A stretch of 64,000 bases of DNA, taken from assembly GCF_022844385.1 (NCBI RefSeq), contig NZ_JALHLX010000004.1, forward strand, positions 14,832-78,831, written 5' to 3'. The stretch is from Hydrogenophaga sp. GTDB taxonomy: Bacteria > Pseudomonadota > Gammaproteobacteria > Burkholderiales > Burkholderiaceae_C. Positions 810 to 30,880 of this stretch are shown piece after piece (the stretch's first letter is position 1; each line of letters opens with the position of its first letter). Made by a program: the position numbers and the translations under genes. A model generated the notes under the pieces. It had not been told where the DNA came from and ran no database searches. It was given only the letters and a program-made list of their open reading frames with translations.

Positions 810-3095
810 ATGCAAGTTTCCGAACAACCGATCCTGCGCGACCTTGTTCTCGTCGGAGGGGGCCACAGCCACGTTGTCGTGCTGCGCATGCTCGCCATGC
901 AACCCGAGTCTGGCCTGCGCATCACCCTCATCTGCACCGACATCGACACGCCTTACTCCGGCATGCTGCCTGGCTACATCTCGGGCCACTACAGCTTTGA
1001 CGAGGTGCACATCGACCTGGGCCGTCTGGCCTCGTTTGCCGGAGCGCGCTTCATCCATGGTGAAGTGACGGGCCTCGATCGGTCCAACCAGCGTGTGCTC
1101 ATGAAGGACCGGCCCTCGGTGCCGTACGACCTGCTCTCCATCAACATCGGCTCCACACCCAATGTGCGCCAGGTGAAAGGCGCGCAAGCACACGCAGTGC
1201 CCGTGAAGCCCATCGCCCACTTCAACCTCCGCTGGCTGAATCTGCTCGAGCGCGTGCGCCTGCTGCGCGATCGATTCACGATCGCGGTGGTCGGCGGCGG
1301 TGCGGGCGGGGTTGAACTGGTGCTGTCGATGCAGTACCGGCTGCGCAGCGAGCTGCAAAAGCTGGGGCGCAATCCCGATTGGCTGCACTTTGTGTTGCTC
1401 ACGGCGGGCGACTCCATCCTGCCGACGCACAACGCCGGGGTACGCGCGCGCTTTGCCCGCGTGCTCAAAGAGCGCCACGTCGCGGTGCATACGCGTGCGG
1501 AGGTGCATCAGGTCGCGCCCGGTTGCCTGCACACGCGCGACGGTCGAACCTTCGATGCCGACGAAACGATGTGGGTCACGCAAGCCGGTGGGCCGGCCTG
1601 GCTGCAAGGCACCGGTCTGGCACTGGACGAACACGGCTTCGTCAAAGTCAACGACCGGTTGCAGACGCTGGACGACCCCAAAATCTTCGCCGCAGGGGAT
1701 GTGGCCTCGTTCACCAACCGCCCGCTGGAGAAGGCCGGTGTGTTTGCCGTGCGCATGGGCCCACCGCTGGTGAAGAACCTGCGCTTGTGCCTGCGCGATC
1801 AGCCGACGGTGGCTTTCAACCCGCAACGCAAATGGCTGGCACTGATCTCCACCGGCAATCGATACGCCGTGGCCTCGCGCGGCTCCATCGGCTTCGCCGG
1901 TACCTGGGTCTGGTCCTGGAAGGACTGGATCGATCGCCGCTTCATGCGCCAGTTCACCGAGCTGCCAGACATGGCGCCCGGTGCCGCCCCCTCGGCTGCA
2001 CCGGCCAGCAGCCTGGCGCTGAGCGCCGAAGAATCCCGCCAGGCCATCTCGGCCATTGCCATGCGCTGTGGTGGTTGCGGCGCCAAGGTGGGCGCCAGCA
2101 TCCTGACCCGCGCACTCGGCAGCCTGCAACCGGTCGAGCGCAACGACGTGCTGATCGGGCTTCACTCGCCCGACGACGCCGCCGTGGTGCGCGTGCCGCC
2201 GGGCAAGGCCATGGTTCACACCGTGGACTTCTTTCGCAGCTTCATCGACGACCCTTACCTGTTCGGCAAGGTGGCGGCCAATCACGCGTTGGGCGACATC
2301 TTTGCCATGGGTGCCGAGCCTCAGTCCGCCACAGCGATCGCCACCGTGCCGCCAGGCCTCGAATCCAAGGTGGAAGACCTGCTGCTGCAAATGATGACCG
2401 GCGCGGTCGAGGTGCTCAACGCCGCCGGCTGCGCCTTGGTCGGTGGGCACACCGGTGAGGGCCGCGAACTCGCACTGGGCTTCGCCATCAACGGACTGAT
2501 CGACGAGAACATGGATGGCGTCATGCGCAAGGGCGGCATGCAAGCGGGTGACGTGTTGCTGCTCACCAAGCCCATCGGCACCGGCACGCTGTTCGCCGCC
2601 CACGCGCGGCACGCCGCCAAGGGCCGCTGGATCGATGCGGCGCTGAAATCCATGGTGGTGTCCAACCAGGTCGGCGCGCAGATCCTGCGCGAACATGGCG
2701 CCACCGCCTGCACCGACCTGACCGGTTTCGGCCTGCTGGGGCATCTGGTGGAAATGACCCGTCCCTCGGGAGTGGACGCAGAGCTGCAACTGAGCGCCCT
2801 GCCCTTGCTGGATGGTGCATTGGAATGCGTTGAAGCGGGCATCGTCAGCTCGCTGCAGCCGGCCAATGTGCGGCTGCGCCGAGCCCTGCGCAACGCCGAA
2901 GACTTCGTCAAAGACCCGCGCTATCCGCTGCTGTTCGACCCGCAGACGGCGGGCGGCCTGCTGGCCAGCGTGCCGGGCGACCGGGCAGCCGACTGCATCC
3001 GTTCCCTGCAGGCGGCAGGCTACCTGCACACAGCAGCCATAGGTCATGTCAGCGGCGCGTCCGACTCACTGGAACCCGTGGTGCTCAGCGCATAA
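810..3095 (+). CDS. selD: Selenide,water dikinase (SelD) fused to an N-terminal FAD-dependent pyridine nucleotide-disulfide oxidoreductase (NDH-2/SQR-like) domain
   Basis: N-half: LVLVGGGHSH, VVGGGAGGVE and IFAAGD. C-half: RCGGCGAKVG, DDAAVV, HTVDFF, ANHALGDIFAMG, LVGGHT, LTKPIGTG, TDLTGFGLLGHL, LLFDPQTAGGLL. ATG at 810 was chosen over the ORF-track start at 753. Confidence 0.9.
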   Translation: MQVSEQPILRDLVLVGGGHSHVVVLRMLAMQPESGLRITLICTDIDTPYSGMLPGYISGHYSFDEVHIDLGRLASFAGARFIHGEVTGLDRSNQRVLMKDRPSVPYDLLSINIGSTPNVRQVKGAQAHAVPVKPIAHFNLRWLNLLERVRLLRDRFTIAVVGGGAGGVELVLSMQYRLRSELQKLGRNPDWLHFVLLTAGDSILPTHNAGVRARFARVLKERHVAVHTRAEVHQVAPGCLHTRDGRTFDADETMWVTQAGGPAWLQGTGLALDEHGFVKVNDRLQTLDDPKIFAAGDVASFTNRPLEKAGVFAVRMGPPLVKNLRLCLRDQPTVAFNPQRKWLALISTGNRYAVASRGSIGFAGTWVWSWKDWIDRRFMRQFTELPDMAPGAAPSAAPASSLALSAEESRQAISAIAMRCGGCGAKVGASILTRALGSLQPVERNDVLIGLHSPDDAAVVRVPPGKAMVHTVDFFRSFIDDPYLFGKVAANHALGDIFAMGAEPQSATAIATVPPGLESKVEDLLLQMMTGAVEVLNAAGCALVGGHTGEGRELALGFAINGLIDENMDGVMRKGGMQAGDVLLLTKPIGTGTLFAAHARHAAKGRWIDAALKSMVVSNQVGAQILREHGATACTDLTGFGLLGHLVEMTRPSGVDAELQLSALPLLDGALECVEAGIVSSLQPANVRLRRALRNAEDFVKDPRYPLLFDPQTAGGLLASVPGDRAADCIRSLQAAGYLHTAAIGHVSGASDSLEPVVLSA

Positions 3096-3130: not shown

Positions 3131-3158
3131 TGTAACGAAAGAGGACCCGGCAGCGACT
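3131..3158 (+). promoter_or_regulatory. ECF (SigF-type) promoter motif TGTAACG-N16-CGACT
   Basis: It lies in the intergenic gap about 60 nt upstream of ATG 3217 and matches five other copies in the window and the GTAACC-N16-CGAA consensus of Caulobacter SigF. Confidence 0.75.
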
Positions 3159-3216
3159 GAAGAGCATTCGGGCAATCAACGATTGCCAAAGCCTGAACCC
3201 ACGAAGCCTTCGCCGC

Positions 3217-5367
3217 ATGAAAAGAACTCTGATCCTCGCCACGGTCGCGATGCTGGTGGCCGCCTATTTCTTGCTTGGGCTGGACCGCTACCTGACACTC
3301 GCCGCCGTGCAGGACCGCTTGGGAGACTTCGAAGCCATCCGCCAGGCCTCTCCCATCGCCACCGCGCTCGGTTTCTTCGGTCTGTACGTGCTGGCCACAG
3401 CTCTGTCACTGCCCGGTGCGGTGATCCTGACGCTCGCGGCTGGCGCCCTGTTCGGATTGGCCGGCGGCACGCTGATCGTCTCGTTCGCCTCCAGCCTGGG
3501 CGCCACACTGGCTTTTCTGGCCTCGCGTTACTTGCTCCGGGACAGCGTGCAGGCGCGTTTTGGCGACCGCCTCAAGGCCATCAACGACGGCATGGCCAAG
3601 GACGGCGCGTTGTATCTGTTCACACTGCGCCTGATCCCGGCCTTCCCGTTTTTCCTCGTCAACCTGCTCATGGGCTTGACACCCATCCGCACCGGCACCT
3701 ATTACTGGGTCAGCCAGCTCGGCATGCTCGCGGGCACCCTGGTCTATGTCAACGCCGGCACCCAGCTGGCCCAGCTCTCAAGTCTCTCGGGTATTTTGTC
3801 GCCGGGTGTTCTGCTGTCCTTTGTTCTGCTCGGCGTCTTCCCCATGATCGCCAAAGCCACTCTCGGTTACCTGCAACGCCGGCGCGTTTACGCCAAGTGG
3901 CAACGGCCCAAAACCTTTGACCGCAATCTGGTGGTCATCGGTGGCGGCGCTGCAGGCCTGGTCACCTCCTACATCGCGGCTGCGGTCAAGTCCAAGGTCA
4001 CGCTGGTCGAGGCACACAAGATGGGTGGCGATTGCCTGAACTACGGCTGCGTGCCCAGCAAGGCATTGATCAAGTCGGCCAAACTCGCCCAACAAATGCG
4101 CCATGCAGATCACTATGGACTGGAGGCTGCCACACCGGCCTTCAGTTTCCGGCAGGTGATGGCGCGGGTGCACCGGGTCATCAGCGAGATCGCTCCGCAC
4201 GACAGCGTGGAGCGCTACACCGGGCTGGGTGTCGAGGTCCTGCAGGGTCGCGCCAAAATCGTGGACCCCTGGACGGTCGAAGTCACCCTCAACGACGGTG
4301 GCATCCAACGCCTGACCACCCGCAGCATCGTCATCGCCGCGGGTGCTCGCCCCTTCGTGCCGCCGCTGCCTGGGCTGGACGACGTGGGCTATGTCACCAG
4401 CGACACCCTGTGGGATGAGTTCGCCAAACTGGACACGCCTCCGGCGCGCATGGTGGTGCTGGGCGGTGGTCCGATCGGCTGCGAGCTGGCACAGAGTTTC
4501 GCGCGCCTAGGCTCAAAGGTCACACAAATCGAAATGGCGCCCCGGATCATGATCCGGGAGGACCAGGAGGTGTCCGACCTCGCTCGCGATTCGCTGCAAC
4601 GCGACGGTGTGGATGTACTGACCGGTCACAAGGCACTGCGCTGCGAGCGGGAGGGAGACCACAAGTTCATCGTGGTGGAACATCAGGGTCAGGAAAAACG
4701 CATCGGGTTCGACACTTTGCTGTGCGCAGTCGGCCGATCGGCACGGCTGCAGGGCTACGGACTGGAAGATCTGGGCATACCAACCGAGCGCACGGTGGTG
4801 GTCAACGAGTACCTCGAAACGCTCTACCCCAACATCTTTGCTGCGGGTGACGTGGCCGGACCATTCCAGTTCACCCACACCGCCGGGCACCAGGCCTGGT
4901 ACGCCGCCGTCAACGCGCTGTTCGGCGGCTTCAAGAAATTCAAGGTCGACTACTCCGTCATCCCCTGGGCCACCTTCATAGAGCCCGAGGTTGCCCGGGT
5001 GGGACTGAATGAACAGGACGCCAAGGAAAAGAACATTCCCTACGAAGTCACGAAATACGGCATTGACGATCTGGATCGCGCCATCGCAGATGGTTCGGCA
5101 CACGGATTCGTCAAGGTGCTGACCGTGCCGGGCAAAGACCGCATTCTGGGCGTGACCATCGTGGGCGAACATGCAGGCGACCTGTTGGCCGAGTTCGTGC
5201 TGGCCATGAAGCACGGGCTTGGACTGAACAAGATACTGGGCACCATCCACACCTATCCCACAATGGCCGAGGCGAACAAATACGTCGCTGGTGAATGGAA
5301 ACGCGCTCACGCTCCTCAGCGCGTCCTGGCCTGGTTGGGTCGCTATCACGCCTGGCGCCGAGGCTGA
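3217..5367 (+). CDS. DedA/VTT (TVP38/TMEM64) membrane domain fused to a class I flavoprotein disulfide reductase (MerA/LpdA-like)
   Basis: N-terminal hydrophobic domain with LFTLRLIPAFPFFLVNLLMGLT, then VIGGGAAG, the redox motif GGDCLNYGCVPSK, LGGGPIGCE, AAGDV and HTYPT. Confidence 0.9.
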   Translation: MKRTLILATVAMLVAAYFLLGLDRYLTLAAVQDRLGDFEAIRQASPIATALGFFGLYVLATALSLPGAVILTLAAGALFGLAGGTLIVSFASSLGATLAFLASRYLLRDSVQARFGDRLKAINDGMAKDGALYLFTLRLIPAFPFFLVNLLMGLTPIRTGTYYWVSQLGMLAGTLVYVNAGTQLAQLSSLSGILSPGVLLSFVLLGVFPMIAKATLGYLQRRRVYAKWQRPKTFDRNLVVIGGGAAGLVTSYIAAAVKSKVTLVEAHKMGGDCLNYGCVPSKALIKSAKLAQQMRHADHYGLEAATPAFSFRQVMARVHRVISEIAPHDSVERYTGLGVEVLQGRAKIVDPWTVEVTLNDGGIQRLTTRSIVIAAGARPFVPPLPGLDDVGYVTSDTLWDEFAKLDTPPARMVVLGGGPIGCELAQSFARLGSKVTQIEMAPRIMIREDQEVSDLARDSLQRDGVDVLTGHKALRCEREGDHKFIVVEHQGQEKRIGFDTLLCAVGRSARLQGYGLEDLGIPTERTVVVNEYLETLYPNIFAAGDVAGPFQFTHTAGHQAWYAAVNALFGGFKKFKVDYSVIPWATFIEPEVARVGLNEQDAKEKNIPYEVTKYGIDDLDRAIADGSAHGFVKVLTVPGKDRILGVTIVGEHAGDLLAEFVLAMKHGLGLNKILGTIHTYPTMAEANKYVAGEWKRAHAPQRVLAWLGRYHAWRRG

Positions 5368-5423
5368 ACAATGACCACCATGGAACTGGCGCCCTGCACT
5401 GCGGTTGGCCGGCCTGGTGTTTT

Positions 5424-6125
5424 ATGAAGACCTTCGTGCCTCACACCCCCATGCGTCTGTCCATCATCGTCCCCATGCTCAACGAAGCAACGGGGCTGCC
5501 CCGCCTGCTGAATCGGCTGTCCGTGCTGAAGAGCCAGGGATGCGAGGTACTGATCGTGGACGGTGGAAGCGATGACGGCTGCGCTGAATTGGCCGCTCGA
5601 AAGGGCTTGCAGGTTCTGACTTCGCCAAGAGGTCGCGCCCGGCAGATGAACCACGGCGCTGCTCATGCGACGGGCAACGTGCTCCTGTTCCTGCACGCAG
5701 ACACCGTTCTGCCCGAGGGGGCGATCATCACCATCCGCCGAGCGATGCAAAGCTCCGGTGCCGTCTGGGGCCGTTTCGATGTGGTCATCGACGGACCTCA
5801 TCCCATGCTGCGCGTGGTGGCCCAGCTGATGAACCTTCGCTCGCGCTGGACGGGCATCGCCACTGGTGACCAGGCGATGTTTGTCACCCGCGAGGCCTTC
5901 AATGCAGCGGTTGGATTCCCCGACCAGCCCTTGATGGAAGACATCGAGTTGTCCAAGCGCCTCCTCGAACGATCGCGCCCTGCTTGCATCGGAAACACCG
6001 TGTTGACGTCGGGACGCCGATGGGAGAGCCGTGGCATCTGGCGAACCATCCTTCTGATGTGGCGGCTGCGCTGGGCGTACTGGCGAGGAGCACCTGCGGA
6101 TCAGTTGGCACAGCTGTACAAATAG
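5424..6125 (+). CDS. GT2 glycosyltransferase, TIGR04283 (arsenosugar-associated) type
   Basis: SIIVPMLNEA, VDGGSDDG, GRARQMNHGA, LFLHADT, GDQAMFV, LMEDIELS, TSGRRW. The start is 5424 or 5451. Confidence 0.85.
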   Translation: MKTFVPHTPMRLSIIVPMLNEATGLPRLLNRLSVLKSQGCEVLIVDGGSDDGCAELAARKGLQVLTSPRGRARQMNHGAAHATGNVLLFLHADTVLPEGAIITIRRAMQSSGAVWGRFDVVIDGPHPMLRVVAQLMNLRSRWTGIATGDQAMFVTREAFNAAVGFPDQPLMEDIELSKRLLERSRPACIGNTVLTSGRRWESRGIWRTILLMWRLRWAYWRGAPADQLAQLYK

Positions 6126-6133
6126 GACACCAC

Positions 6134-6772
6134 ATGAATCACTCTGTCCACATCATCGTCTTCGCCAAAGCACCCGTCGCAGGCCTTGCCAAGACAAGGC
6201 TGATCCCGGCGCTGGGAGCAACGGGCGCTGCCCGCCTGGCTGCCTTGATGTTGAAACATGCGGTAGCACAGGCGCTGGCCAGCGAGGTGGGCACTGTGGA
6301 GGTGTGTGTGACGCCTGCGCCTGAAGATCCCATGTGGTCGGAGCTGTTGCCGCAGCACGCAGCGCTGCGCATCAGCGATCAAGGCCATGGTGACTTGGGA
6401 GAGCGAATGGCGCGGGCTGCTCAACGTGCGTTGGCCGCGGGCCACGCGGTGCTGTTGATGGGAACCGATTGCCCGGATCTCACCGCCGAGCGAATTCGAA
6501 TGGCGGCAGCGAACTTGCTCACCAGCGATGCCGCGCTCGTACCAGCCTTTGACGGTGGCTATGTCTTGCTGGCACTGAACCGCTTTGATGCCAGCCTATT
6601 TCGAGACATCGCCTGGAGCACCTCCAGCGTGGCGCAGGTCACGCGGTCTCGGATGGGCCAGTTGGGCTGGAGCGCGACCACCTTGTCAACGCTGCACGAC
6701 ATCGATGAGCCCGATGATCTTCGTTGGCTGCCCGAGGCTTTGCTGCCGGCTGGCATTCAGCAGCCGAAGTGA
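6134..6772 (+). CDS. TIGR04282/DUF2064-type transferase (CofC-like nucleotidyltransferase/GT-A fold)
   Basis: VFAKAPVAGLAKTRL, QGHGDLGERM, GTDCPDL, PAFDGGYVLL, DIDEPDDL; ATG at 6134 follows AGGA. Confidence 0.85.
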   Translation: MNHSVHIIVFAKAPVAGLAKTRLIPALGATGAARLAALMLKHAVAQALASEVGTVEVCVTPAPEDPMWSELLPQHAALRISDQGHGDLGERMARAAQRALAAGHAVLLMGTDCPDLTAERIRMAAANLLTSDAALVPAFDGGYVLLALNRFDASLFRDIAWSTSSVAQVTRSRMGQLGWSATTLSTLHDIDEPDDLRWLPEALLPAGIQQPK

Positions 6773-6777
6773 TGTGA

Positions 6778-7230
6778 TCAGTTGGCAGTCGCCGCAGCGG
6801 CGATACCTTCGAGCGCCTTGCGCAGGTTCTCGACCACGGGGCACTGCGCAACACCATGGCGCTGGGCGAGAAAGGCTGGGTCGTTGTAACCCACCCAGAC
6901 TTGGGCTGATGCGTCCTCCCACACCAACGCCTTGAGCGGCAGGTCGATGCCAACCGATTGCGCGCACTCCATGAAAGGTGTTCCGCCCTGCGGATTGCCG
7001 AAGATGAGCACCTCGGTGGGTCGAAGGGGCCTGCCCACCTTGGTCGCGCCAGCGGCATGGTCGATGCGCGCGAACACGTTCAGGCCCCGTTGTTTGACGA
7101 TGTCCTCCAGCCGGTCCATGGTCGCCTTCGCACCATGAGGACTCTTGACTGCGATCAGACCATCGGCGGCATTGACCAGGCCGAGGGTGGATGTCAGAAC
7201 GAGTGCAGCGATGGCGTGAAAAACTCGCAT
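6778..7230 (-). CDS. DUF302 family exported protein
   Basis: Signal peptide-like N-terminus, then VFARIDHAAGA, LIFGNPQGGTPFM and IGIDLPLKALVWED. Confidence 0.8.
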   Translation of the reverse strand: MRVFHAIAALVLTSTLGLVNAADGLIAVKSPHGAKATMDRLEDIVKQRGLNVFARIDHAAGATKVGRPLRPTEVLIFGNPQGGTPFMECAQSVGIDLPLKALVWEDASAQVWVGYNDPAFLAQRHGVAQCPVVENLRKALEGIAAAATAN

Positions 7231-7341
7231 GGGAAGCCTCCTTGGGGTTGGGGTGGCGCAGCCTGGCTGCTTCAGAGCTTGTGAGAGGCACTCAGCCTCC
7301 AACAAGTTCTCAGGTTCTACGCAGATGACTTCGGAACTGGA

Positions 7342-8187
7342 TCAAGACCGGAGCTGGGACACCCAGGTCTTCTGTGCCTCGGACATCGCTTCGTCGGGCG
7401 TGAGCAGCGCCCCGGTGAGCGCTGTGCGGATCGAGGCTTCGGGCACTGGCAGCGTCTGCGACAACAGCGCGTCGAGCAGGCGACGTGCCTTGGCCAGGCT
7501 CTGGCCGTAGAGCTCGAACACGGCCGACACGCTGACGTGTTGCGTGGGGTCGTCGAGCCAGCAGTCGTAGTCGGTCACCAGGCCCACGGTGGCATAGGCC
7601 ATCTGGGCCTCGCGCGCCAGAAACACCTCGGGTGCGTTGGTCATGCCCACCAGGTGGCAACCCATCTGCCGCAGCAGGTGGCTCTCGGCCTGGGTGCCCA
7701 AGCGGGGGCCGTCCACGCAGGCGTAGGTCAGGCCGCGGTGCACCGAGAGGCCAGACTTGTCTGCAGCGGCCATGACCGCATCGACCAGCGCACTGCTCAC
7801 GGGCTTGGCGGTGGAGACATGTGCTGCGACACCGTCACCGAAGAAAGTTCGCTCGCGCGCACCGCGCGTCCAGTCGATGTACTGCTCGGGCATCGCAAGC
7901 TCGCCAGGCGCGACTTGGATGGCCAGGCTGCCCACGGCCGAAAAGCCCAGCATCATGGTGGCGCCTGCACGCTTGAGCGCATACACGTTGGCGCGGTAGT
8001 TCACTTCGTGCGGCAACAGCCGGTGACCGGCCCCGTGGCGCGCCAGAAACAGCACCGCCTGGCCGTGCAAGGTGCCGCGCAACACCTCGCCCGATGGCGT
8101 GCCGAACGGCGTGTCGCCGCCCTGACGTTCGTGGATGTCCAGACCGTCGAGTTCGTAGAGGCCGGTGCCTCCGATGATGGCGAGCAT
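7342..8187 (-). CDS. mtnP: 5'-methylthioadenosine / purine nucleoside phosphorylase (MTAP family)
   Basis: AIIGGTGLY, TPFGTPS, FLARHG, NYRANVYALK, GPRLGT, VGMT, VTDYDCW. Confidence 0.88.
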   Translation of the reverse strand: MLAIIGGTGLYELDGLDIHERQGGDTPFGTPSGEVLRGTLHGQAVLFLARHGAGHRLLPHEVNYRANVYALKRAGATMMLGFSAVGSLAIQVAPGELAMPEQYIDWTRGARERTFFGDGVAAHVSTAKPVSSALVDAVMAAADKSGLSVHRGLTYACVDGPRLGTQAESHLLRQMGCHLVGMTNAPEVFLAREAQMAYATVGLVTDYDCWLDDPTQHVSVSAVFELYGQSLAKARRLLDALLSQTLPVPEASIRTALTGALLTPDEAMSEAQKTWVSQLRS

Positions 8188-8190
8188 GGT

Positions 8191-9195
8191 TCAGTTCTCC
8201 AGTGGGCGCACGGCGTCCTGCAGCTGATAGGCCGGACCGTGCTGGATGCGGTTGAAGTAGGAGGCGTGGGCGTCGCTGCCCTCGGGCCACAGCTTTTGGA
8301 ATTGCCGCTGCCAGGCGGCGGTATCGATTTCGATGGCGATGGCGTCGATGTGAACCTCACGCTCGACCACGCCGAAACGACGCTCGGCGCCCGTGTACGG
8401 CGAGAGCGCGATGCGGGTGATCAGGCCCGCCGCATCGCCCTGGAAGTTGGGCATGCCGGTGGCGCCGTTGTTGAACACCCAGCGTGCGTGGTCTTGCTTT
8501 GAAGCAAGGCGCTGGAACACGGGCAGACAGGTGTGCGTGCTGGCAAAGGCGTGCACGTCAGCCTCGTCGAACCAGCGTTTCACCGCCTCGCGGTGCACGG
8601 CGTCGCGCAGGTGCTCCTGCGCAAAGCCCCAGCCGGCGAGCGACTGCGCGTCGCCATGCACCACGCCCAGACGCAGTGGACCGACATCGGCGCGCAGCCA
8701 CATCGGCAAGGACCGCAGTTCGCGCTGCTGCTCGGGTGTGACGCAGCTGCGCAGCGCTTTGTGAATGCGGTTGGAGCGTTCGACCACCTGGTCTCCCACC
8801 CAGTCGGGGTAGGCGCAACCGCAGCCGGCATCGGCATCGGCGCTTTCATCGGCGTTCTGGTCGGCCAGCTCGGTCTCCACATTGCCGCGCAAGGCATCAA
8901 AGCGCATCACCGATTGCTGGATGCGGGTGAACACGGCTGGATCGGCGTCAAACCAATGGAAGTCGCCGTTGAACACCATGCGGGCTCGCCCGCGCTCCTG
9001 CCCGAACAGTTCGATCACGCGCTGCAGTGCGGCCTCGTTGCCATACAAGCCGCCCACCACATAAAGCACATCGAGATCTCTCAGGTGCTCAGGCGCCGCG
9101 CTGGCGAACACCGAGGGCGCGTAGCGGTAGTGCAGTGGGCAGCTTCTGCCGGCAGTCGCAGGCGAGGCATCGAGCGTGGGAGCGTCAATGTTCAT
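8191..9195 (-). CDS. Hypothetical protein with degenerate calcineurin-like metallophosphoesterase motifs
   Basis: Motif order VVGGLYGN, FNGDFHWFD, LRGNVE, VVHGD, STHTCLP, NNGATG. ATGA overlap with the upstream ATPase and a 3-nt gap to the phosphorylase. Confidence 0.65.
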   Translation of the reverse strand: MNIDAPTLDASPATAGRSCPLHYRYAPSVFASAAPEHLRDLDVLYVVGGLYGNEAALQRVIELFGQERGRARMVFNGDFHWFDADPAVFTRIQQSVMRFDALRGNVETELADQNADESADADAGCGCAYPDWVGDQVVERSNRIHKALRSCVTPEQQRELRSLPMWLRADVGPLRLGVVHGDAQSLAGWGFAQEHLRDAVHREAVKRWFDEADVHAFASTHTCLPVFQRLASKQDHARWVFNNGATGMPNFQGDAAGLITRIALSPYTGAERRFGVVEREVHIDAIAIEIDTAAWQRQFQKLWPEGSDAHASYFNRIQHGPAYQLQDAVRPLEN

Positions 9196-10037
9196 GGGGT
9201 ACTTCGTTGCAGGGTTGGCAGGCAAGCCGTCAGCGCCGGCGTCGGGCATGGGTTGGGTGTTGAACAGCGGTCGGTTGGCATCGGGCTCAGGCTAGACGCA
9301 TACAGCGCCTGCAGCCGTTCGGCATCGACCTGAGCGATCGGCAAGTCAAATTCCAGCGCGCCATCGCGAAGGCCGATCACGTGATCGGCCAACAACGGCA
9401 GCAGCGCAGGCTGGTGTACCACGGTGATCAGTGTGGCGCCACCGGCGATGCTGCACAGCCATCGGCAGGCATCGGCGGCGGCGGCCGGGTCCAGATTGGC
9501 CGTGGGTTCGTCGGCCAGGATGAGGCGCGGGCGCTGCAGACGCAGGCGTGCAATGCTGAGCTTCTGGCGTTCGCCCCCCGAGAGACGGTCGGTGCGTGTA
9601 TCGCCCAGACCCTCCAGACCAACCACAGCAAGCGCCTCGTCGGCCTCAGCCACGAGCGTCGCGGGGTACAGGCGGCTCCAGCTGCGCCAGCCGCTCAGGC
9701 GTCCCAGCGCGCCGATCAACACGTTCTCGCGCGCGCTCAAGCGCGACACCATGTGCAGCCCCTGCATGACCTGGCCCACCTCGCTCCGCCAGGCGCGCAG
9801 CGCGGCGTCGGACACCGGCTCCTGCAGCGGCCGCCCCAGCACGCTGACCGATCCTTCGGTGGGAACCGCCAGGCCACCGAGCACCCGCAGCAGCGTCGAT
9901 TTGCCCGCGCCGTTGTGCCCGACGATGGCCACCCGCTCGCCGGCACCGATGTGCAGTTCGTCCAGTCGCAGCAAGGTCCGCGCACCGGCTTTCACGGCCA
10001 GCTTGCGGATGTGGATGTCGTGTGTTGTGGCGCTCAC
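9192..10037 (-). CDS. PhnC-like ABC transporter ATP-binding protein
   Basis: Walker A GHNGAGKS, signature LSGGERQK, ILADEPTANLDP; the GTG start overlaps the permease stop. Confidence 0.9.
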   Translation of the reverse strand: MSATTHDIHIRKLAVKAGARTLLRLDELHIGAGERVAIVGHNGAGKSTLLRVLGGLAVPTEGSVSVLGRPLQEPVSDAALRAWRSEVGQVMQGLHMVSRLSARENVLIGALGRLSGWRSWSRLYPATLVAEADEALAVVGLEGLGDTRTDRLSGGERQKLSIARLRLQRPRLILADEPTANLDPAAAADACRWLCSIAGGATLITVVHQPALLPLLADHVIGLRDGALEFDLPIAQVDAERLQALYASSLSPMPTDRCSTPNPCPTPALTACLPTLQRSTP

Positions 10038-10930
10038 AGCAAAGCCTGGCGTATGCGCCGAGAGAGGCTGTCGAACGCCACCACCAGCGCGATGACGACG
10101 AGCAGGATGGTGGCCAGGCGGCTCCACTGGAACAGGCTGACCGCCTCGGAGATCAGCAGGCCGAGGCCGCCCGCGCCGATGAGGCCCAGGATGGTCGAGT
10201 CGCGGATGTTGAACTCCCAGATGTAGAGGTGGTTCGACACGAACTGGGGCAGCACGGCGGGCCACACGGCGTTGAAGAAGACCTGGGTGCGCGACGCGCC
10301 GGTGGCTTGCACGGCGTGGATGGCGCCCATGTCCAGCGACTCGACCGACTCCGCGTACAGCTTGCCGTAGGTGCCCATGGAATGCAGCGCAATGGCCAGT
10401 ATGCCGGCGGTCGGACCCAGGCCAACAATGCCCACCAGCACCAGGCCGAACACCAGTGTGTGAATGGCGCGCAGCACGTCAAGCAGACCTTTGCTCGCCC
10501 AGGCCAGCCAGCGAGGTGCGCCCAGGTTGCGCGCGCTCAGCAGGCCGGGGGGCAAGGCCAGCAAGGCCCCCAGCAGCGAACCCAGGGTGGCGATCTGGAA
10601 CGTGACCCAGGTGGCACGCCCCAGTGCCGCCAGAAAATCGGCCTCCACCACGCGGCGGTCTTCCACGCGCAGCAAGGTGCCGTCGTCGCTGCGGTATTCC
10701 AGGCGCTCCGGCCCGAACCACACATCCAGAAAACTCGGGTACGCGAATTCACCGATCGACTTGATCAGATTGGCCACGGGGTTGCGCCCCAGCGACAACT
10801 CGCCCGCCACCCAGAGGCTGCCCAGGCAGACGCCCACCAGCAGCGCATAGGCGAGCACCAGCAGCGCAAAACGCGCCCGACCGGACCAACGCGGTGGCGA
10901 GAAAGGCGGCTGGATCAGCAGCGCGCTCAC
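10034..10930 (-). CDS. PhnE-like ABC transporter permease
   Basis: LRAIHTLVFGLVLV, GKLYAESVE, WEFNIRDSTILGLIGAGGLG. Confidence 0.9.
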   Translation of the reverse strand: MSALLIQPPFSPPRWSGRARFALLVLAYALLVGVCLGSLWVAGELSLGRNPVANLIKSIGEFAYPSFLDVWFGPERLEYRSDDGTLLRVEDRRVVEADFLAALGRATWVTFQIATLGSLLGALLALPPGLLSARNLGAPRWLAWASKGLLDVLRAIHTLVFGLVLVGIVGLGPTAGILAIALHSMGTYGKLYAESVESLDMGAIHAVQATGASRTQVFFNAVWPAVLPQFVSNHLYIWEFNIRDSTILGLIGAGGLGLLISEAVSLFQWSRLATILLVVIALVVAFDSLSRRIRQALL

Positions 10931-11793
10931 TTGGGCTGCAGCGTGCCAGTGGCCAGACCAGCGTCCCGGATCGGCTTGTAGGCCCGGTTGTCGCTGTTGA
11001 TGAAGCCGGTGTAGCTCGGCGGCATCAGACCGGGCTGCGTCTTGAGAAGGGGGCCAACCTCAGCCAGCGCCGCCTGCAGGCGCGCCACGAAGGCCTTGTC
11101 CTTGTGGAGCGCTTCGCTGACGGCAAACGCGTCGTTGGGCAAAGGATCGGACTGCCAGATGATCTTCGAGCGCTCGGCTTTGATCAGGCCCTGCGCGATC
11201 ATCGCGTCGCGGTTGCGGTTGTAGTCGGCGCCAGCGTCGATCTGCCCGGCAGTGACCTGGGTCTGGATCGCCTGGTGCTTGGTGTGCAGCACGCGAGAAA
11301 AATGCTTCGCGGGATCGATGCCCTGCTTCATGAAGAAATGCAGCGGGATCAGGTAACCGGAGGTGGATCCTTTGTCGCCAAAGGCAAAGGTGCGCCCTTT
11401 GAGGTCGGCCACCGAATTGATGCCCGAGTCCGGATGGGTGACGATCATCGCGAAGTATTCGGGCTTGCCTTCGTACAGGATGGTCGAGACCACCTGGGCA
11501 TTGGCCGCCTGGTTGGCCAGCACGTAGCCCCACGGACCCATCAAGGCCAGGTCGGTTTCACCATTGGCGAGCGACTTGGCCAAGCCTTCCCAGCTGTCGA
11601 CTGTGCGCAGCTCTACCGGGCGACCCAGGCGCTGCGAGAGGTGTTGCGCCAGCGGCCGGTAGGTGGCGTCGTTGCGCTCGCGATCGGGCTGGAACAGGCC
11701 GACACCGAATTTCAGCGGCGTGGTCTGTGCCTGTGCGGTGAGCGTTGCGAGCAGCAGGAACAGGCTGGCCAGCCAGCGGGTGAACACGATCAT
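10927..11793 (-). CDS. PhnD-like phosphate/phosphonate/oxyanion ABC substrate-binding protein
   Basis: Signal peptide, GPWGYV, FAFGDKGSTSGYLIP, SDPLPNDAF; the ATG overlaps the radical SAM stop (ATGA). Confidence 0.9.
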   Translation of the reverse strand: MIVFTRWLASLFLLLATLTAQAQTTPLKFGVGLFQPDRERNDATYRPLAQHLSQRLGRPVELRTVDSWEGLAKSLANGETDLALMGPWGYVLANQAANAQVVSTILYEGKPEYFAMIVTHPDSGINSVADLKGRTFAFGDKGSTSGYLIPLHFFMKQGIDPAKHFSRVLHTKHQAIQTQVTAGQIDAGADYNRNRDAMIAQGLIKAERSKIIWQSDPLPNDAFAVSEALHKDKAFVARLQAALAEVGPLLKTQPGLMPPSYTGFINSDNRAYKPIRDAGLATGTLQPK

Positions 11794-12836
11794 GGGGTCT
11801 CTCCTGAAGTTACGGTTTGGGATGGGCTTTGATGCGCGGCATGAACAGAAATCGTCGCTGCCGCTGGGTCGGCCGACTCCAGTGCACCACCGCAACTGCT
11901 GCCCTGTCCTGCGGTGCAGCCGTAGCAGTGGTCAGCAATCCGGATGGCCTCGCCTTCGGGATCCGCACCGAGCAGTTCCCGCAGGTGCGGACGGTAGGTC
12001 TTGCCCAGGCGGGCCGGCAGCCCCAGCATCTGGTTGAAGTCGCAGTCGTACAGATCGCCCTGCCAGTCCACGCTGATCATGGAGCGGCACATCACGGTGT
12101 TGAGGTTGTCGGCCTGGTACGCCTGCTTGAGCAGTTGCATATAGGTGACGAAGGTGCCCTTGGAGACCAGGGTGCTCCCAAAACGCTGCACCGGCATGTT
12201 GGTCAGCGCAAACAGGTGGTTGAAGCGGATGCCGAAGTGCTGCAGCAGCTCGCGCTTGTAGTCGGCCTCCAGTGCACCTTGCGGTGGTGGTAACGACGGG
12301 CCTTGGGGGTTGTAGACGAGATTGAGCGTGAGACCACTGTCCGGCACTCCGTAACCCAGCGCGTTGAGTTGCTGCAGCCCGGTGATGCTGAGATCGAACA
12401 CGCCATCGCCCCGCTGACGATCGACATTGGCCGGGGAATAACACGGCATGGAAGCCACCACCTGAACACCTTGCTCAGCCAGGAAGGCCGCCAGGTCTTC
12501 CTGACCGGGCTCGCTGAGGATGGTCAGGTTGCAGCGGTCGATCACCGCGACACCCAGGCTCCGTGCCGCCACCACCAGGCGCCTGAAGTGGTCACTGAGT
12601 TCCGGCGCGCCCCCGGTGAGGTCCAGCGTGGTGATGCGCCTGGCTTTCAGCACCTCGATCACCAGGTCCACCGTTGCCCCGTCCATCATTTCGGTGCGGT
12701 TGGGGCCGGCGTTGACGTGGCAATGCAGGCAGGACTGGTTGCAGCGGTAACCGAGGTTGACCTGCAGAGTGGTCAGGGGTTGGCGCCGGATGGCGGGAAA
12801 GTCGGTGGCGGTGAGCAGCGGCAGGGTGTCGTGCAT
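11790..12836 (-). CDS. arsS: Radical SAM / Cys-rich protein of the ArsS (TIGR04167, DUF3641) family
   Basis: CxxxCxxC in NLGYRCNQSCLHCHVNAGP, LDLTGGAPEL, YDCDFNQML and the C-terminal HCYGCTAGQGSSCGGAL (Cys, not UGA, at every position read). Confidence 0.88.
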   Translation of the reverse strand: MHDTLPLLTATDFPAIRRQPLTTLQVNLGYRCNQSCLHCHVNAGPNRTEMMDGATVDLVIEVLKARRITTLDLTGGAPELSDHFRRLVVAARSLGVAVIDRCNLTILSEPGQEDLAAFLAEQGVQVVASMPCYSPANVDRQRGDGVFDLSITGLQQLNALGYGVPDSGLTLNLVYNPQGPSLPPPQGALEADYKRELLQHFGIRFNHLFALTNMPVQRFGSTLVSKGTFVTYMQLLKQAYQADNLNTVMCRSMISVDWQGDLYDCDFNQMLGLPARLGKTYRPHLRELLGADPEGEAIRIADHCYGCTAGQGSSCGGALESADPAAATISVHAAHQSPSQTVTSGETP

Positions 12837-12872
12837 GGGACGGACTGGTGAAGTTGAAGGTTCGACACCATC

Positions 12873-12900
12873 AGTCGTTCACAACCGATTGTTTGTTACA
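12873..12900 (-). promoter_or_regulatory. ECF promoter motif TGTAACA-N16-CGACT upstream of the arsS operon
   Basis: The reverse strand reads TGTAACAAACAATCGGTTGTGAACGACT, about 36 nt upstream of ATG 12836. Confidence 0.8.
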
Positions 12901-12940
12901 GCCCGGCAGAAAAAATACCGCCAGGGGCGTTGTCGCGGCC

Positions 12941-13576
12941 TCACCACCTCAGCAGCCGCGGACCGAGGACCGCGCCCAGCAGCCCAGTCAGCAGGACTCC
13001 CAGCGAGTACCAGACTGCCACAAACGTGGCCGAGACCTCAGGACACACCAGGGAATAACCCATGGCGCCCAGTGCGCCGGCCATCAATCCAGCGTTGAAG
13101 CCGGCAGCCCGCAGTTGGGTGGGTGCGAGTCCGCGAAGCGCCCACAGTGCGCCGGCCAGTGCCGGCAACGAAAGCGCCACCACATTCGTTGGGCAGCTGA
13201 GCCAGGTTTCGCCAAACAGGGCCGCCATGCGTTGATCCGGCGCGCTGGACACCAGCGTGAGCGCGCCCAGGGCCAGCATGGTGGCAAACACAGCCAACAC
13301 GGCCCGCACGGGCCAGTGCGTGCGCGCCACCGGCCGGGAAAGCCTCGCCGTCAACCAGCCAGCCGCCAGCGCCAAGCTGCCGCCGTACATGAGCTTCAGC
13401 CACGGTGCCTGCGTAGCCCACATGGTCACTGGGATCGATCCCATGCTCACCAGCGCGGACAAGGCGCTGGCGATCAAGCCAAGCGCCACCACTGGGGCCA
13501 GTCGCCGCAGCACGGGCGCCTGGGGGGCAGGCCCTGCGCCCTTGGCCAACATCTCGATCAACGATTGCGTTTTCAT
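12941..13576 (-). CDS. nrsF: NrsF-type (DUF1109) membrane anti-sigma factor
   Basis: MKTQSLIEMLAKG start, six hydrophobic segments, Cys motifs WLSCP, RGLAPT and YSLVCPE...FVAVWY; ATGA-coupled to the sigma gene. Confidence 0.85.
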   Translation of the reverse strand: MKTQSLIEMLAKGAGPAPQAPVLRRLAPVVALGLIASALSALVSMGSIPVTMWATQAPWLKLMYGGSLALAAGWLTARLSRPVARTHWPVRAVLAVFATMLALGALTLVSSAPDQRMAALFGETWLSCPTNVVALSLPALAGALWALRGLAPTQLRAAGFNAGLMAGALGAMGYSLVCPEVSATFVAVWYSLGVLLTGLLGAVLGPRLLRW

Positions 13577-14139
13577 GTTCCTGTGTCTTTCACCCATTGC
13601 GCCAGCCGCTTCAACCCTCTGTGCACTTGTACCTTGATGGCCGACTCCGAGATGCCGGTGCGCATCGATGCTTCGGTTACCGACAGCCCCTCGATCTTCG
13701 TCAACACGATGGCCTGACGTTGAACATGTGGCAACTCCTGAAGCAGCCTTTCAAGGTCTCGCTGCGCACCGTCTTCGACCGGCTCGGCTGCCAGCAAGGC
13801 CTCGTCCACATCGTCCAGCGCGTCGTGGAGGTTCTCCCGCCGCCCACGGCGCCTCCAGAGATCGACCAGCTTGTGGCGAGCGATCGCGGTGACCCAGGCG
13901 CTGACCGGCAACGTCGGGTCAAAGGTTCCGCGTTGCAGATGAAGTGCCAGCAGCGTTTCCTGCACCAGGTCTTCGATGTCGTCTGGCGTCGACTGCATGC
14001 GCCGCCGCAGGAATCCGCGGATGCGCAACGCGATCTTCTCCAGCGCCTCGCGGTAAGCGACCTCATCGCCTTGCTGCGCACGCAGCCACAGCGGTTTCAG
14101 GCTGGCTTCGAAATCGTTGGGACCTGTCTCTCTAGGCAT
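13573..14139 (-). CDS. sigF: ECF RNA polymerase sigma factor (SigF/EcfF, ECF16-like)
   Basis: EDLVQETLLALH, WVTAIARHKLVD, LTKIEGLSVTEAS, IKVQVHRGLKRL; directly upstream of an NrsF-type gene. Confidence 0.85.
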   Translation of the reverse strand: MPRETGPNDFEASLKPLWLRAQQGDEVAYREALEKIALRIRGFLRRRMQSTPDDIEDLVQETLLALHLQRGTFDPTLPVSAWVTAIARHKLVDLWRRRGRRENLHDALDDVDEALLAAEPVEDGAQRDLERLLQELPHVQRQAIVLTKIEGLSVTEASMRTGISESAIKVQVHRGLKRLAQWVKDTGT

Positions 14140-14166
14140 TTCGTGGCAGCGGCTGCTTTGGTTACA
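14140..14166 (-). promoter_or_regulatory. ECF promoter motif TGTAACC-N16-CGAA (autoregulatory)
   Basis: The reverse strand reads TGTAACCAAAGCAGCCGCTGCCACGAA, abutting the sigma ATG at 14139. Confidence 0.75.
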
Positions 14167-14235
14167 CAAATGGGGGGGCGGCATGAACAAGTGCCGACCA
14201 AAGGCAGGGTTGTTGGCCCGGGATTCTGCACTGCC

Positions 14236-14263
14236 TGTAACCGAAAGGCCTCCGGCTTCGTAA
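14236..14263 (+). promoter_or_regulatory. ECF promoter motif TGTAACC-N16-CGTAA
   Basis: TGTAACCGAAAGGCCTCCGGCTTCGTAA, upstream of the DUF547 gene and back to back with the sigma promoter. Confidence 0.75.
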
Positions 14264-14373
14264 ATCAAAGGCCCTTCCATCCCTTTCAACCCGTCAAGAC
14301 AAGCCAGATGAAAACTTCTTCCACGCCCGCCTCGCGCGTGGTCACGACGCAGCCCTTGTCCGAGGGCCTTGTC

Positions 14374-15207
14374 ATGAGCACCAGCCGACGCCAGTTTTTC
14401 CTCTTCACTGCCGGGTGCCTTCCGGCCTTGTTGCCCCTGGGCCACAGCCATGCTGCAGTGTTCGATCACAGCCACGCCGCCTGGACCGGTCTGCTCAAAC
14501 GGCATGTCGTGCTGCTTCGCGGCGGGCAGGCATCGCAGGTTCGCTACGCAGGCTTCTCAAAGGACCGCGGGGACCTCACGGCCTATCTGTCGTCACTTTC
14601 CGCCGTCACCATTGACGGGTTCTCGGCCTTCTCCCTGGCGCAGCGCCAGGCGTTCCTGATCAACGCCTACAACGCGTTCACCGTCGAACTGATCCTCACC
14701 AAATACCCGGACCTGACGTCGATCAAGGAGTTGGGCAGCCTCCTCTCCAGTCCCTGGAAGCCGAAATGGATTTCCCTGCTGGGCAGCAAGGTGTCGCTGG
14801 ACGACATCGAACACGGCATGCTGCGCAAGCGGGGCGTCTATGACGATCCCAGGGTGCATTTCGCCGTGAACTGCGCGTCCATCGGGTGTCCAATGTTGCG
14901 CGAAGAAGCCTTTGTAGCAACGCGCATCGACGCCCAACTGGAGGAGCAGTCGAACCGTTTCATGGCTGACCGGACGCGCAACCGGTTTGACGAAGCCGCG
15001 GGGCGACTGCAACTCTCGCGTATCTTTGACTGGTATGCCGACGATTTCAAGCGAGGTGATCGGGGCGTCACCTCATTGCACGGTTTTGCCGGGCTGTACG
15101 CCGAACGCTTGTCGGACTCTGCAGCGGGCCGAGATCGGATCCGCAGCGGGCGCGTTGACATCACCTACCTCGACTACGACTGGTCCCTGAACGACGCAAG
15201 CCGCTGA
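14374..15207 (+). CDS. DUF547 domain exported protein, possible Tat substrate
   Basis: SRRQFF twin-arginine-like leader, AFLINAYNAFT, SLDDIEHGMLR, DPRVHFAVNCASIGCP, LSRIFDWY, YDWSLN. An alternative ATG is at 14308. Confidence 0.85.
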   Translation: MSTSRRQFFLFTAGCLPALLPLGHSHAAVFDHSHAAWTGLLKRHVVLLRGGQASQVRYAGFSKDRGDLTAYLSSLSAVTIDGFSAFSLAQRQAFLINAYNAFTVELILTKYPDLTSIKELGSLLSSPWKPKWISLLGSKVSLDDIEHGMLRKRGVYDDPRVHFAVNCASIGCPMLREEAFVATRIDAQLEEQSNRFMADRTRNRFDEAAGRLQLSRIFDWYADDFKRGDRGVTSLHGFAGLYAERLSDSAAGRDRIRSGRVDITYLDYDWSLNDASR

Positions 15208-15213
15208 GTCGTT

Positions 15214-15462
15214 TTACTGAGGGTGACGCACGTCTTCGCGAGGCAGCTGGCTTCTGCTGACTTCGTTTTTGGCTGCGCTGTAGCTGGACACGAGGTAGGG
15301 CACCAGGTAGTTGAGTGCCACATGCATCCACGAGGGCGCGTGAGCGGCCAAGATGGCCTCACCCTGATTGATCACATTGAGTGCAGTGCCGACAACGGCA
15401 GACACACGCAGTGCGTTCAGGACGATGGATCTGGACAAGGCTGTGCTGATGAGATTTTTCAT
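15214..15462 (-). CDS. nrtS: NrtS-like small two-helix membrane protein
   Basis: ALRVSAVVGTALNVINQG and NYLVPYLVSSY match the family pattern. Confidence 0.65.
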   Translation of the reverse strand: MKNLISTALSRSIVLNALRVSAVVGTALNVINQGEAILAAHAPSWMHVALNYLVPYLVSSYSAAKNEVSRSQLPREDVRHPQ

Positions 15463-15486
15463 TGGAGGGCTTCATGTGATGGCGGG

Positions 15487-15513
15487 TTCGTTCGCTTGAC
15501 CCGATCGGTTACA
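15487..15513 (-). promoter_or_regulatory. ECF promoter motif TGTAACC-N16-CGAA
   Basis: The reverse strand reads TGTAACCGATCGGGTCAAGCGAACGAA, about 25 nt upstream of ATG 15462. Confidence 0.75.
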
Positions 15514-15543
15514 TCGCCGATCAAGAAAAGAATCTTTTTTTGA

Positions 15544-15570
15544 TGTAACGAACCAGACGCGCTTTCGACC
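15544..15570 (+). promoter_or_regulatory. ECF promoter motif TGTAACG-N15-CGAC upstream of the bufferin operon
   Basis: TGTAACGAACCAGACGCGCTTTCGACC; the spacer is one base shorter than in the other copies. Confidence 0.65.
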
Positions 15571-15654
15571 ATGCAGGGTAGGCCAGATTGTCTGACCTGC
15601 CCGCTCGGAGGAATTTCCATGAGCGGATTTGCCAACCCCTTGCAGGAGTGATTC

Positions 15655-15975
15655 ATGGAAAACACTGTCGATCGCCGCACCGCCACCCGCCTCGCATCCG
15701 GCGCCGCCCTGGCCCTGGCCATGGGTGCCGCGCTCACGCTGGCGGCTGCACCTGTTGCCGCACAGAGCGCGGACAAAGAAAAATGCTTCGGCGTCGCGCT
15801 GAAGGGCAAGAACGATTGCGCCGCCGGGCCAGGCACCACCTGCGCCGGCACGTCCAAGGTGGACTACCAGGGCAACGCCTGGTCGCTGGTTCCAAAAGGA
15901 ACGTGCGAGAAGACCGCATCGCCCAAGTCGCCATCCGGATTCGGGCAATTGAAGGAGTTCAAGGAAAAGGCTTGA
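15655..15975 (+). CDS. bufA1: DUF2282 bufferin-type RiPP precursor (periplasmic metallophore)
   Basis: Signal peptide followed by the four-Cys core [14 protein letters not shown]...[23 protein letters not shown]. Confidence 0.9.
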
Positions 15976-30873: not shown

Positions 30874-30880
30874 TGGCAGC

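Follow-up and report, generated by a model that had tools for sequence, protein, structure and literature searches.

ECF promoter motifs point to an ArsS–reductase module as a probable arm of the SigF–NrsF regulon in Hydrogenophaga

Between an ArsS cluster and a bufferin operon of a Hydrogenophaga sp. genome lie sigF and nrsF, which encode an extracytoplasmic function (ECF) sigma factor and its membrane anti-sigma factor. The locus occupies part of a 64,000-nucleotide (nt) stretch of DNA, hereafter the window, that corresponds to C4:14832–78831 of a 3.9-Mb parent assembly of 237 contigs, itself a metagenome bin. An earlier note on this DNA had proposed that six copies of one promoter motif tie the bufferin operon and a SelD/ArsS gene cluster into a single SigF–NrsF regulon. 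Here, from motif statistics, comparison of genomes and public RNA-like runs, we describe six copies of the motif that head six transcription units, recur in related genomes and coincide with apparent transcript starts, supporting an extension of the SigF–NrsF regulon to a module of ArsS, a DedA-type flavin reductase, DUF547 and two transferases. SigF–NrsF as a system and its link to bufferins are already known; membership of the ArsS module, and its attachment to two ECF systems, are new to the searchable literature, in which we found no link between ArsS and an ECF sigma factor.

Gene identities were assigned from Pfam and NCBIfam profile matches, which bear out the names that had been given to the sigma factor, NrsF, the bufferin operon, DUF547, the NrtS-like gene, ArsS and the DedA-reductase. 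The sigF gene (13573–14139, minus strand; Pfam Sigma70_r2 and r4_2, NCBIfam ECF models) is followed directly by nrsF (12941–13597, minus strand), which overlaps it by 25 nt and matches Pfam NrsF (PF06532) over its full length (E=1.3e-57); the sigma factor is a candidate for the ECF16 group of the Staron classification. The predicted NrsF has exactly two cysteines, C135 and C185, which are 50 residues apart and invariant in 12 homologues. Beyond an intergenic gap of 104 nt lies arsS (11790–12836, minus strand; TIGR04167 456 bits against a cut-off of 300, Pfam DUF3641), encoding a radical S-adenosylmethionine enzyme, and downstream of it on the same strand is a block (6686–11895), annotated with Pfam, of genes for a PhnD-like binding protein, the permease and ATPase of an ATP-binding cassette (ABC) transporter, an unknown 352-residue protein and a PNP/MTAP-like phosphorylase, with an unknown 201-residue open reading frame (ORF). 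On the plus strand, a gene at 3217–5367 encodes a DedA/VTT membrane domain fused to a flavin adenine dinucleotide (FAD)-dependent pyridine-nucleotide-disulfide reductase (Pfam VTT_dom, Pyr_redox_2 and Pyr_redox_dim; the best NCBIfam models, from the FAD-containing oxidoreductase, MerA and lipoamide-dehydrogenase families, all score below cut-off), and the TIGR04283 and TIGR04282 transferases (5295–6772, plus strand; 284 and 200 bits) follow in the same operon. On the other side of sigF stand a DUF547 gene (14308–15207, plus strand; Pfam DUF547), a gene for an NrtS-like small membrane protein (15214–15462, minus strand; NCBIfam NrtS, 39 bits where the cut-off is 25) and the bufferin operon for a copper-binding peptide (15655–18245, plus strand), composed according to Pfam of bufA (DUF2282), an MNIO gene (DUF692), DUF2063 and DoxX.

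The ArsS equivalog and both transferases exceed their NCBIfam cut-offs, so that by NCBIfam naming this is an ArsS-type arsenosugar biosynthesis cluster. NCBIfam labels the two transferases 'arsenosugar biosynthesis', and the cyanobacterial ArsS arsenosugar pathway is the basis of the names TIGR04167, TIGR04283 and TIGR04282. The window shares with that pathway the three high-scoring enzymes and differs from it in the DedA-flavin reductase, DUF547, the phosphonate-type ABC importer, the phosphorylase and the apparent control by an envelope-stress sigma factor. No arsM was found among the Pfam-annotated genes between window positions 753 and 19017, and no arsenic-responsive regulator was recognized. 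An arsenosugar product of the window cluster, from adenosylation of a methylated arsenical, is putative.

The promoter motif, written here as TGTAAC-N17-CGW, has five exact matches in the window, at 3131(+), 12900(-), 14166(-), 14236(+) and 15513(-), against 0.25 expected, a 20-fold enrichment; none of 100 shuffles gave five or more. The sixth site, at 15544(+), has a spacer one base shorter. (We count the spacer after TGTAAC, so that N17 and N16 correspond to N16 and N15 in the earlier note, which left the variable seventh base outside the spacer.) The TGTAAC hexamer by itself occurs eight times in the 64 kb, and six of the eight belong to the six sites. A scan of both strands of the whole assembly returned ten N17 matches, five of them within a 12.4-kb stretch (Poisson P ~3e-10), and the remaining ones fall within ORFs or a repeated element, or have no gene downstream. 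Matches on C77, C89, C90, C129, C176/C228 and C234 were set aside on these grounds; a candidate seventh site at C163:3702(-), upstream of a DUF2726 protein, has zero coverage in the RNA-like runs described below and is probably a chance match. With two mismatches allowed, the pattern occurs at chance level (91 found, 102 expected), so only exact sites are informative and weaker ones cannot be called. The first 20 kb of the window scored no σ70-like promoter against 2.2 expected; beyond this, the σ70 scan and a terminator scan yielded nothing of use.

All six sites had been described as intergenic, correctly oriented and close to a start, and they are: each points to a start codon 1–86 nt away (DedA-reductase 60 nt, arsS 38, sigma 1, DUF547 46, NrtS-like 25 and bufA 86), and four of them form the two back-to-back pairs 14166(-)/14236(+) and 15513(-)/15544(+) that had been pointed out. 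Compared with the σF motif of Caulobacter, GTAACC-N16-CGAA, which was mapped by 5′ rapid amplification of cDNA ends and primer extension (PMC3511200), they fall into two types. The canonical type comprises the promoters before sigF (14141..14166, minus strand; TGTAACC-N16-CGAAA) and the NrtS-like gene (15488..15513, minus strand), which match fully, together with that before DUF547 (14236..14261, plus strand), back to back with the sigF promoter, which combines GTAACC with CGTA. The promoters before the reductase operon (3131..3156, plus strand; TGTAACGAA-N-CGACTGA), arsS (12875..12900, minus strand; TGTAACAAA-N-CGACTGA, an exact match to the search pattern) and bufA (15544..15568, plus strand; TGTAACGAA-N-CGACCA) keep GTAAC and CGA with G or A at position 7 and CGAC at the -10 box; we call these sites hybrid, because a C at position 6 is followed by [G/A]AA and a CGAC -10, in the case of bufA also with the shorter spacer.

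Evidence on transcription comes from four public runs of one study (X26, X27, X30 and X31), whose assembled contigs are 99+% identical to the window. Across window positions 500–58500, real coverage in these four runs falls almost solely on the six motif-headed units. Depth is highest in the region on sigF–nrsF (28–54), followed by bufA–bufB (10–28), the first ~600 nt of arsS (contigs 12159–12859; 14–21), the NrtS-like gene (3–7), DUF547 (4–6) and the opening ~350 nt of the reductase gene (3177–3560; 4–6); a segment at 6725–7188 is covered in two of the four runs (2.6–3.2). Apart from these regions and a mer region described below, the 58 kb is essentially bare. DNA would not yield coverage this gene-specific and reproducible. 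The operon genes downstream of arsS and of the reductase have near-zero or weak signal, and the restriction of coverage to the operon fronts possibly reflects attenuation, processing or low depth. Other runs proved useless for mapping starts: X25 and X28 contain diverged relatives only, and in X33 and X39 coverage is patchy or uniformly low.

The starts of these contigs bear on the prediction that transcription begins just downstream of the motifs. The first covered base mostly lies 16–41 nt after the CGW, the closest contig start being 21 nt away for the reductase, 16 for arsS, 22 for sigF, 23 for DUF547 and 18 for bufA; with contig ends trimmed, this fits transcription starts just downstream of the sites. 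Reductase contigs begin at 3177–3248 with nothing upstream, DUF547 contigs begin at 14284–14312 and sigF contigs extend only to 14119. For bufA, contigs begin at 15586, 15587 and 15605 in three runs (depth 21–28) and at 15553, inside the promoter, in X31 (depth 10.3). A coverage gap at about 12860–12910 separates the nrsF and arsS contigs in three of the four runs, indicating that arsS has a start of its own. Contig starts just downstream of the motifs, and the joint expression of the units, agree with the prediction of the earlier note.

Within the genus, arsS occurs in 4 of 36 other genomes at 88–95% identity (5 of 37 with the present one), always directly downstream of nrsF and with the same order of genes downstream of it. 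The cluster is patchy, in the manner of an accessory module appended to the sigF locus. In the four congeners, TGTAAC and CGA are retained before arsS, the reductase, sigF and DUF547 wherever these are present, and the spacers have diverged, as seen for the arsS promoter of the window (TGTAACAAACAATCGGTTGTGAACGACTG) and of the congeners G048 (TGTAACAAACAGGCGGTGGTGAACGACTG), G065 (TGTAACGAAAGGGCCATGTCGAACGACTG) and G058 (TGTAACCGGTACGCGGCGGCGCACGACAG). The reductase site is conserved with a diverged spacer in L175 and L177, and the DUF547 site in the congeners; bufA is also present in L175 and L176 with its motif kept, and the NrtS-like site is identical in L175. Where the gene order is rearranged each unit takes its motif along: in G058 the reductase occupies the DUF547 position, divergent from sigF. 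Functional -35 and -10 boxes should behave in this way, being kept while spacers diverge and travelling with their units.

The association extends beyond the genus in a survey of 80 ArsS loci from other Proteobacteria genomes. In three of these (L001, L003 and L006) sigF–nrsF adjoins arsS and the motif precedes arsS, and in L006, from Inhella, an entire operon of ArsS, reductase, DUF547, transferases and ABC transporter diverges from sigF with the two sites back to back. In 29 of the 80 loci the 200 nt upstream of arsS contain the relaxed motif GTAA[C/G/T]-N16/17-CGW, against ~1.15 expected from a background of 0.0144 per 200 nt computed in the same loci (P ~1e-32), and most of these 29 have no sigF upstream. 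The motif further stands before 7 of 42 reductase genes, 3 of 3 sigF, 2 of 3 bufA and 3 of 11 phosphorylase genes, the motif-bearing phosphorylase gene standing directly upstream of arsS in L007, L010 and L013. Across the loci no operon-internal gene is preceded by it (0 of 149; 0/59, 0/52, 0/21 and 0/17), the first two counts being the TIGR04283 and TIGR04282 transferase genes. The DedA-reductase follows arsS in many of the surveyed loci and DUF547 follows the DedA-reductase in 17 other loci; as DUF547 is a regular internal member of ArsS–reductase operons, having a SigF-type promoter of its own in the window connects it with the pathway of those operons. An NrtS-like homologue lies beside the bufferin operon in L015. 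In 10 other genomes TGTAACC-N16-CGAAT precedes sigF, and all the sigF–nrsF loci examined carry this sequence. Together, the footprints in the four congeners, the adjacency of sigF–nrsF and motif-bearing arsS in other genera, and the restriction of the motif to operon-leading genes in the 80 loci support the proposed co-regulation of arsS, the DedA-reductase operon and DUF547 with sigF–nrsF and the bufferin operon.

The survey also brought to light a second promoter class. The majority of the 29 arsS sites read TGTAAG(G/A)A-N-CGAC(T/C)A and not TGTAACC...CGAA, and the genomes that carry them mostly have no NrsF (3 of 3 in one set, 16 of 21 in another); nearly all encode a different ECF sigma factor followed by an anti-sigma factor of 65–100 residues of the zinc-finger type zf-HC2. 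In these genomes the motif precedes that sigma gene, the methionine sulfoxide reductase genes msrA and msrP, a DUF2282 bufferin and a cysteine-rich EGKCG-repeat peptide, as well as DUF1223 and DUF547 genes and a free-standing DedA-reductase. Counted by promoter type, NrsF is present in 3 of 5 TGTAAC genomes and in 5 of 21 TGTAAG/T genomes, a trend that agrees with two classes but is not decisive, since the bins are incomplete and G012 is an exception. In two loci, L145 (G018) and L158 (G029), the zinc-finger-type sigma gene lies directly beside an arsS that is headed by a TGTAAG-type site, mirroring the adjacency of sigF and arsS in the window.

The parent assembly itself holds a system of this second kind. 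At C140:4094–7600 (L180), a second ECF sigma factor and a 69-residue zf-HC2 anti-sigma factor are encoded in divergent orientation to a gene for a secreted thioredoxin/AhpC-like protein and to another operon of MNIO (DUF692) and DUF2063, and the promoter class of the system is TGTAA[G/T]-N16-CGAC. Sites of the class, with G or T at position 6, lie before the thioredoxin-like gene on C140; TGTAAG-type sites precede a periplasmic msrB–msrA pair (C92:785–1974; L181) and a 67%-identical paralogue of the DedA-reductase (C209:288–4008; L182), which diverges from a fused TIGR04283/TIGR04282-like gene. The assembly would accordingly contain two stress systems in parallel, and an MNIO operon goes with each. 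One recurrent match of the class was rejected. The sequence TGTAAGGA...CCGACCA, found at the 3′ end of zinc-finger-type sigma genes (L131–L158; C140:4406(-) in the present assembly) and resembling an internal promoter that has been conserved, encodes in frame the conserved region-4 peptide C-K-x-L-x-I/L-S/T-P-T-N. Its copies, just before the anti-sigma gene in many genomes, were left out of the training set described below; they may either mislead motif scans systematically as false positives or be an internal promoter concealed within coding sequence.

We consider it likely that the six sites are working promoters of SigF, which NrsF would let go on sensing metal or chlorine stress and which would then transcribe the six local units. 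In the mechanism that we propose, modelled on Caulobacter and Azospira, stress from metals or reactive chlorine would act on NrsF through its two conserved cysteines and free the sigma factor. SigF would then transcribe sigF–nrsF, the bufferin operon, the NrtS-like gene and DUF547, and with them the arsS–ABC importer–phosphorylase operon and the DedA-flavin reductase–transferase operon, so that the ArsS/reductase/DUF547/transferase module would form a stress-induced arm of the regulon. More generally, in many Proteobacteria the ECF promoter of arsS may be served either by SigF–NrsF (TGTAACC...CGAA) or by a sigma factor with a zinc-finger anti-sigma factor (TGTAAG...CGAC). Dependence of the window units on this particular sigma factor, the inducing signal and the product of the module are all inferred; that the product is protective is a reasonable expectation from the company that the module keeps, namely bufferins, Msr enzymes and thioredoxin-like proteins.

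The closest precedent is the σF–NrsF system of Caulobacter crescentus (Kohler et al. 2012, PMC3511200), and the facts quoted from it in the earlier note, its promoter, NrsF and its DUF2282/DUF692/DUF2063/DoxX operons, agree with the published accounts (PMC3511200, PMC11626156). That regulon comprises two DUF2282/DUF692/DUF2063 operons, one also with DoxX, and yedY, and the NrsF residues C131 and C181 are functionally important (PMC3511200); operons of this DUF2282/DUF692 type make bufferins and are controlled by SigF under copper stress (PMC11626156). The window shares with it the ECF sigma factor, the overlapping nrsF gene, the two conserved cysteines, the promoter spacing, and bufferin operons and sigF itself as targets. 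It differs in that the reported Caulobacter regulon, eight genes under chromium plus sigF–nrsF, is without ArsS, DedA-reductase, DUF547 and NrtS-like genes, in that yedY/msrP is not beside sigF here, and in that three of the six promoters deviate (CGAC at -10, non-C at position 7). In Azospira suillum, SigF–NrsF (yedY1Z1–mrpX) responds specifically to reactive chlorine (PMC4436054) and resembles the present pair as a betaproteobacterial system whose conserved promoters diverge and whose local regulon is very small; its inducer accords with the occurrence of the present bacterium in drinking-water and biofilter metagenomes. What it controls is a methionine-rich peptide together with a methionine sulfoxide reductase, and neither a bufferin nor ArsS. 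The second system, found in this assembly and in most ArsS-bearing genomes, resembles RpoE2–HrsE of Haemophilus influenzae and σE–MseR of Neisseria meningitidis, which control msrAB and a DoxX operon and respond to hypochlorous acid and hydrogen peroxide (PMC7907618). We liken them to it by architecture and targets, an ECF sigma factor with a zf-HC2 anti-sigma factor of 65–100 residues and the motif before msrA/msrB/msrP and DoxX-containing MNIO operons; an ArsS or DedA-reductase target is not reported for them in PMC7907618, PMC2893595 or PMC3240639.

Several observations weigh against assigning all six units to SigF. To compare the two classes we used a log2 likelihood ratio (LLR; SigF versus zinc-finger class) from position matrices trained on non-arsS sites. 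The sigF (+11.5), DUF547 (+16.5) and NrtS-like (+15.4) promoters score as SigF type, whereas those of the DedA-reductase (-3.3), arsS (-6.3) and bufA (-8.3) are nearer the zinc-finger class in the extended -35 and the -10. One genome with no detectable NrsF, G012, uses TGTAAC...CGACT, so a C at position 6 is not an absolute mark of SigF. Given a second ECF sigma factor with a near-identical motif in the assembly, a single regulon is not proven: of the one uniform motif that had been claimed, the six sites stand, and the uniformity gives way to three canonical and three hybrid promoters. In the sigF promoter a single nucleotide separates the end of the -10 CGA from the first ATG in frame (CGAAATG; 14137–14143), a 0–1-nt layout also seen in the four congeners and in L123, L125 and L126 (the ATG lies 17–18 nt downstream in L121 and L124), and this first ATG is probably not on the SigF-dependent transcript, so that the true start codon may lie elsewhere or an additional promoter may exist. 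The four runs, moreover, are only guessed to be RNA, and consist of assembled, unstranded contigs with trimmed ends; some low-depth contigs cross the bufA/NrtS-like intergenic region. Finally, the assembly being a metagenome bin, C140, C92 and C209 might come from another organism.

The main rival explanation, which we regard as unlikely, is that the hybrid promoters of arsS, the DedA-reductase and bufA are read by the C140 sigma factor, alone or with SigF, and would answer to a cytoplasmic thiol-oxidation signal instead of, or besides, NrsF. Their -10 (CGACT/CGACC) and extended -35 ([GA]AA after TGTAAC) match the class that, in NrsF-less genomes, precedes arsS, msrA, msrP, bufferin-like peptides and its own sigma gene; the bufA site has the spacer of that class; the assembly encodes such a sigma factor and has the class sites on C92, C140 and C209; G012, which lacks NrsF, uses TGTAAC...CGACT; and transcription from the sigF promoter of Caulobacter does not depend on SigF alone (PMC3511200). 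Against this, the sites within the assembly separate cleanly, all six having C at position 6 and those of the second system G or T, and bufA beside sigF–nrsF is a canonical SigF target. A CGAC -10 can co-occur with a SigF-type -35, as in the promoter of sigF itself in G065 and in the arsS promoter of L001, where GTAACC and CGACT stand together, and the arsS promoters of L003, L005, L006 and L179 are plainly of SigF type. Expression also tells against it: sigF–nrsF, arsS, the reductase and bufA are covered in the four RNA-like runs, whereas the C140 sigma locus and the C209 paralogue, like the C163 candidate, have zero coverage, which favours SigF over the second sigma factor at the hybrid promoters. 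Much less probable still is that arsS is expressed solely by read-through from sigF–nrsF and that the motif at 12900 is a non-functional look-alike. One X26 contig (12159–14003) does span sigF and nrsF into arsS, and no clear terminator was scored in the short nrsF–arsS gap; yet the arsS contigs are separate in the other three runs, the motif is kept in four congeners with changed spacers, and it stands before arsS in 29 of 80 loci, mostly without an upstream sigF. That the six matches are chance or remnants of a repeat element, not promoters, is scarcely credible: TGTAAC alone is indeed not over-represented in the window (8 against 6.3 expected), but the full pattern is enriched, intergenic and correctly oriented, the sites have only the two short boxes in common and not their spacers, and the pattern is conserved across genera and coincides with transcript starts.

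If SigF does serve the module, its known regulon, which is very small, is enlarged by ArsS and the reductase. Should ArsS clusters be headed by envelope-stress ECF promoters in about one-third of the sampled genomes and be co-expressed with sigF and bufferins, this would offer a handle on ArsS function and point to copper, chromate, cadmium, and hypochlorite or chlorite as conditions to consider, not arsenic alone. A pair of near-identical ECF promoters in one cell would also present a natural case of insulation versus target sharing between two sigma factors. A broader reading, which we offer tentatively and hold to be possible more than probable, is that in heterotrophic Proteobacteria the ArsS–DedA reductase–DUF547–transferase module serves not arsenic detoxification but a widespread arm of the envelope response to oxidants and copper. 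Its product would be a protective adenosyl- or ribosyl-derived molecule, possibly with sulfur, selenium or arsenic, working beside bufferins and Msr enzymes. On more than one occasion the module would have become connected to two unrelated ECF sigma/anti-sigma systems. The chief differences between their promoters are one -35 base (G/C), the -10 (CGAC/CGAA) and one spacer base. The hybrid promoters of this lineage would be either midway in a switch from the zinc-finger system to SigF–NrsF or dual-input promoters.

The flavoprotein–SelD fusion gene (810–3095, plus strand; NCBIfam TIGR03169 and selD) had been counted in the same regulon as the ArsS cluster, and here the claim divides: motifs and contigs support the ArsS/reductase arm, and SelD has no motif and almost no transcript. 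No exact ECF motif was found upstream of the fusion, a two-mismatch scan being non-informative, and its coverage in the four runs is ~0 apart from two contigs of depth 2.2–2.6 inside the gene (one each in X26 and X30), which are the only contigs (≥95%) between positions 500 and 18500 outside the covered regions given above. The fusion lies within 10 kb of arsS in 1 of 80 other loci (L012), and just beyond the arsS operon in the congener G048. It is adjacent to the regulon and not tied to it, and the evidence for the regulon is silent on selenium.

Two further features of the window were noted. In the 86-nt leader of bufA, a 10-codon ORF (MSGFANPLQE; 15619–15651) with a strong GGAGGA ribosome-binding site stops 3 nt before the bufA ATG and might encode a leader peptide or serve to couple translation. 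Farther downstream, a mer region (merR/merT; 30389–30888) is the only other stretch of the 58 kb that is covered in all four runs (depth 4–7), which hints either that the sampled cells were under metal stress or that the locus is constitutively expressed.

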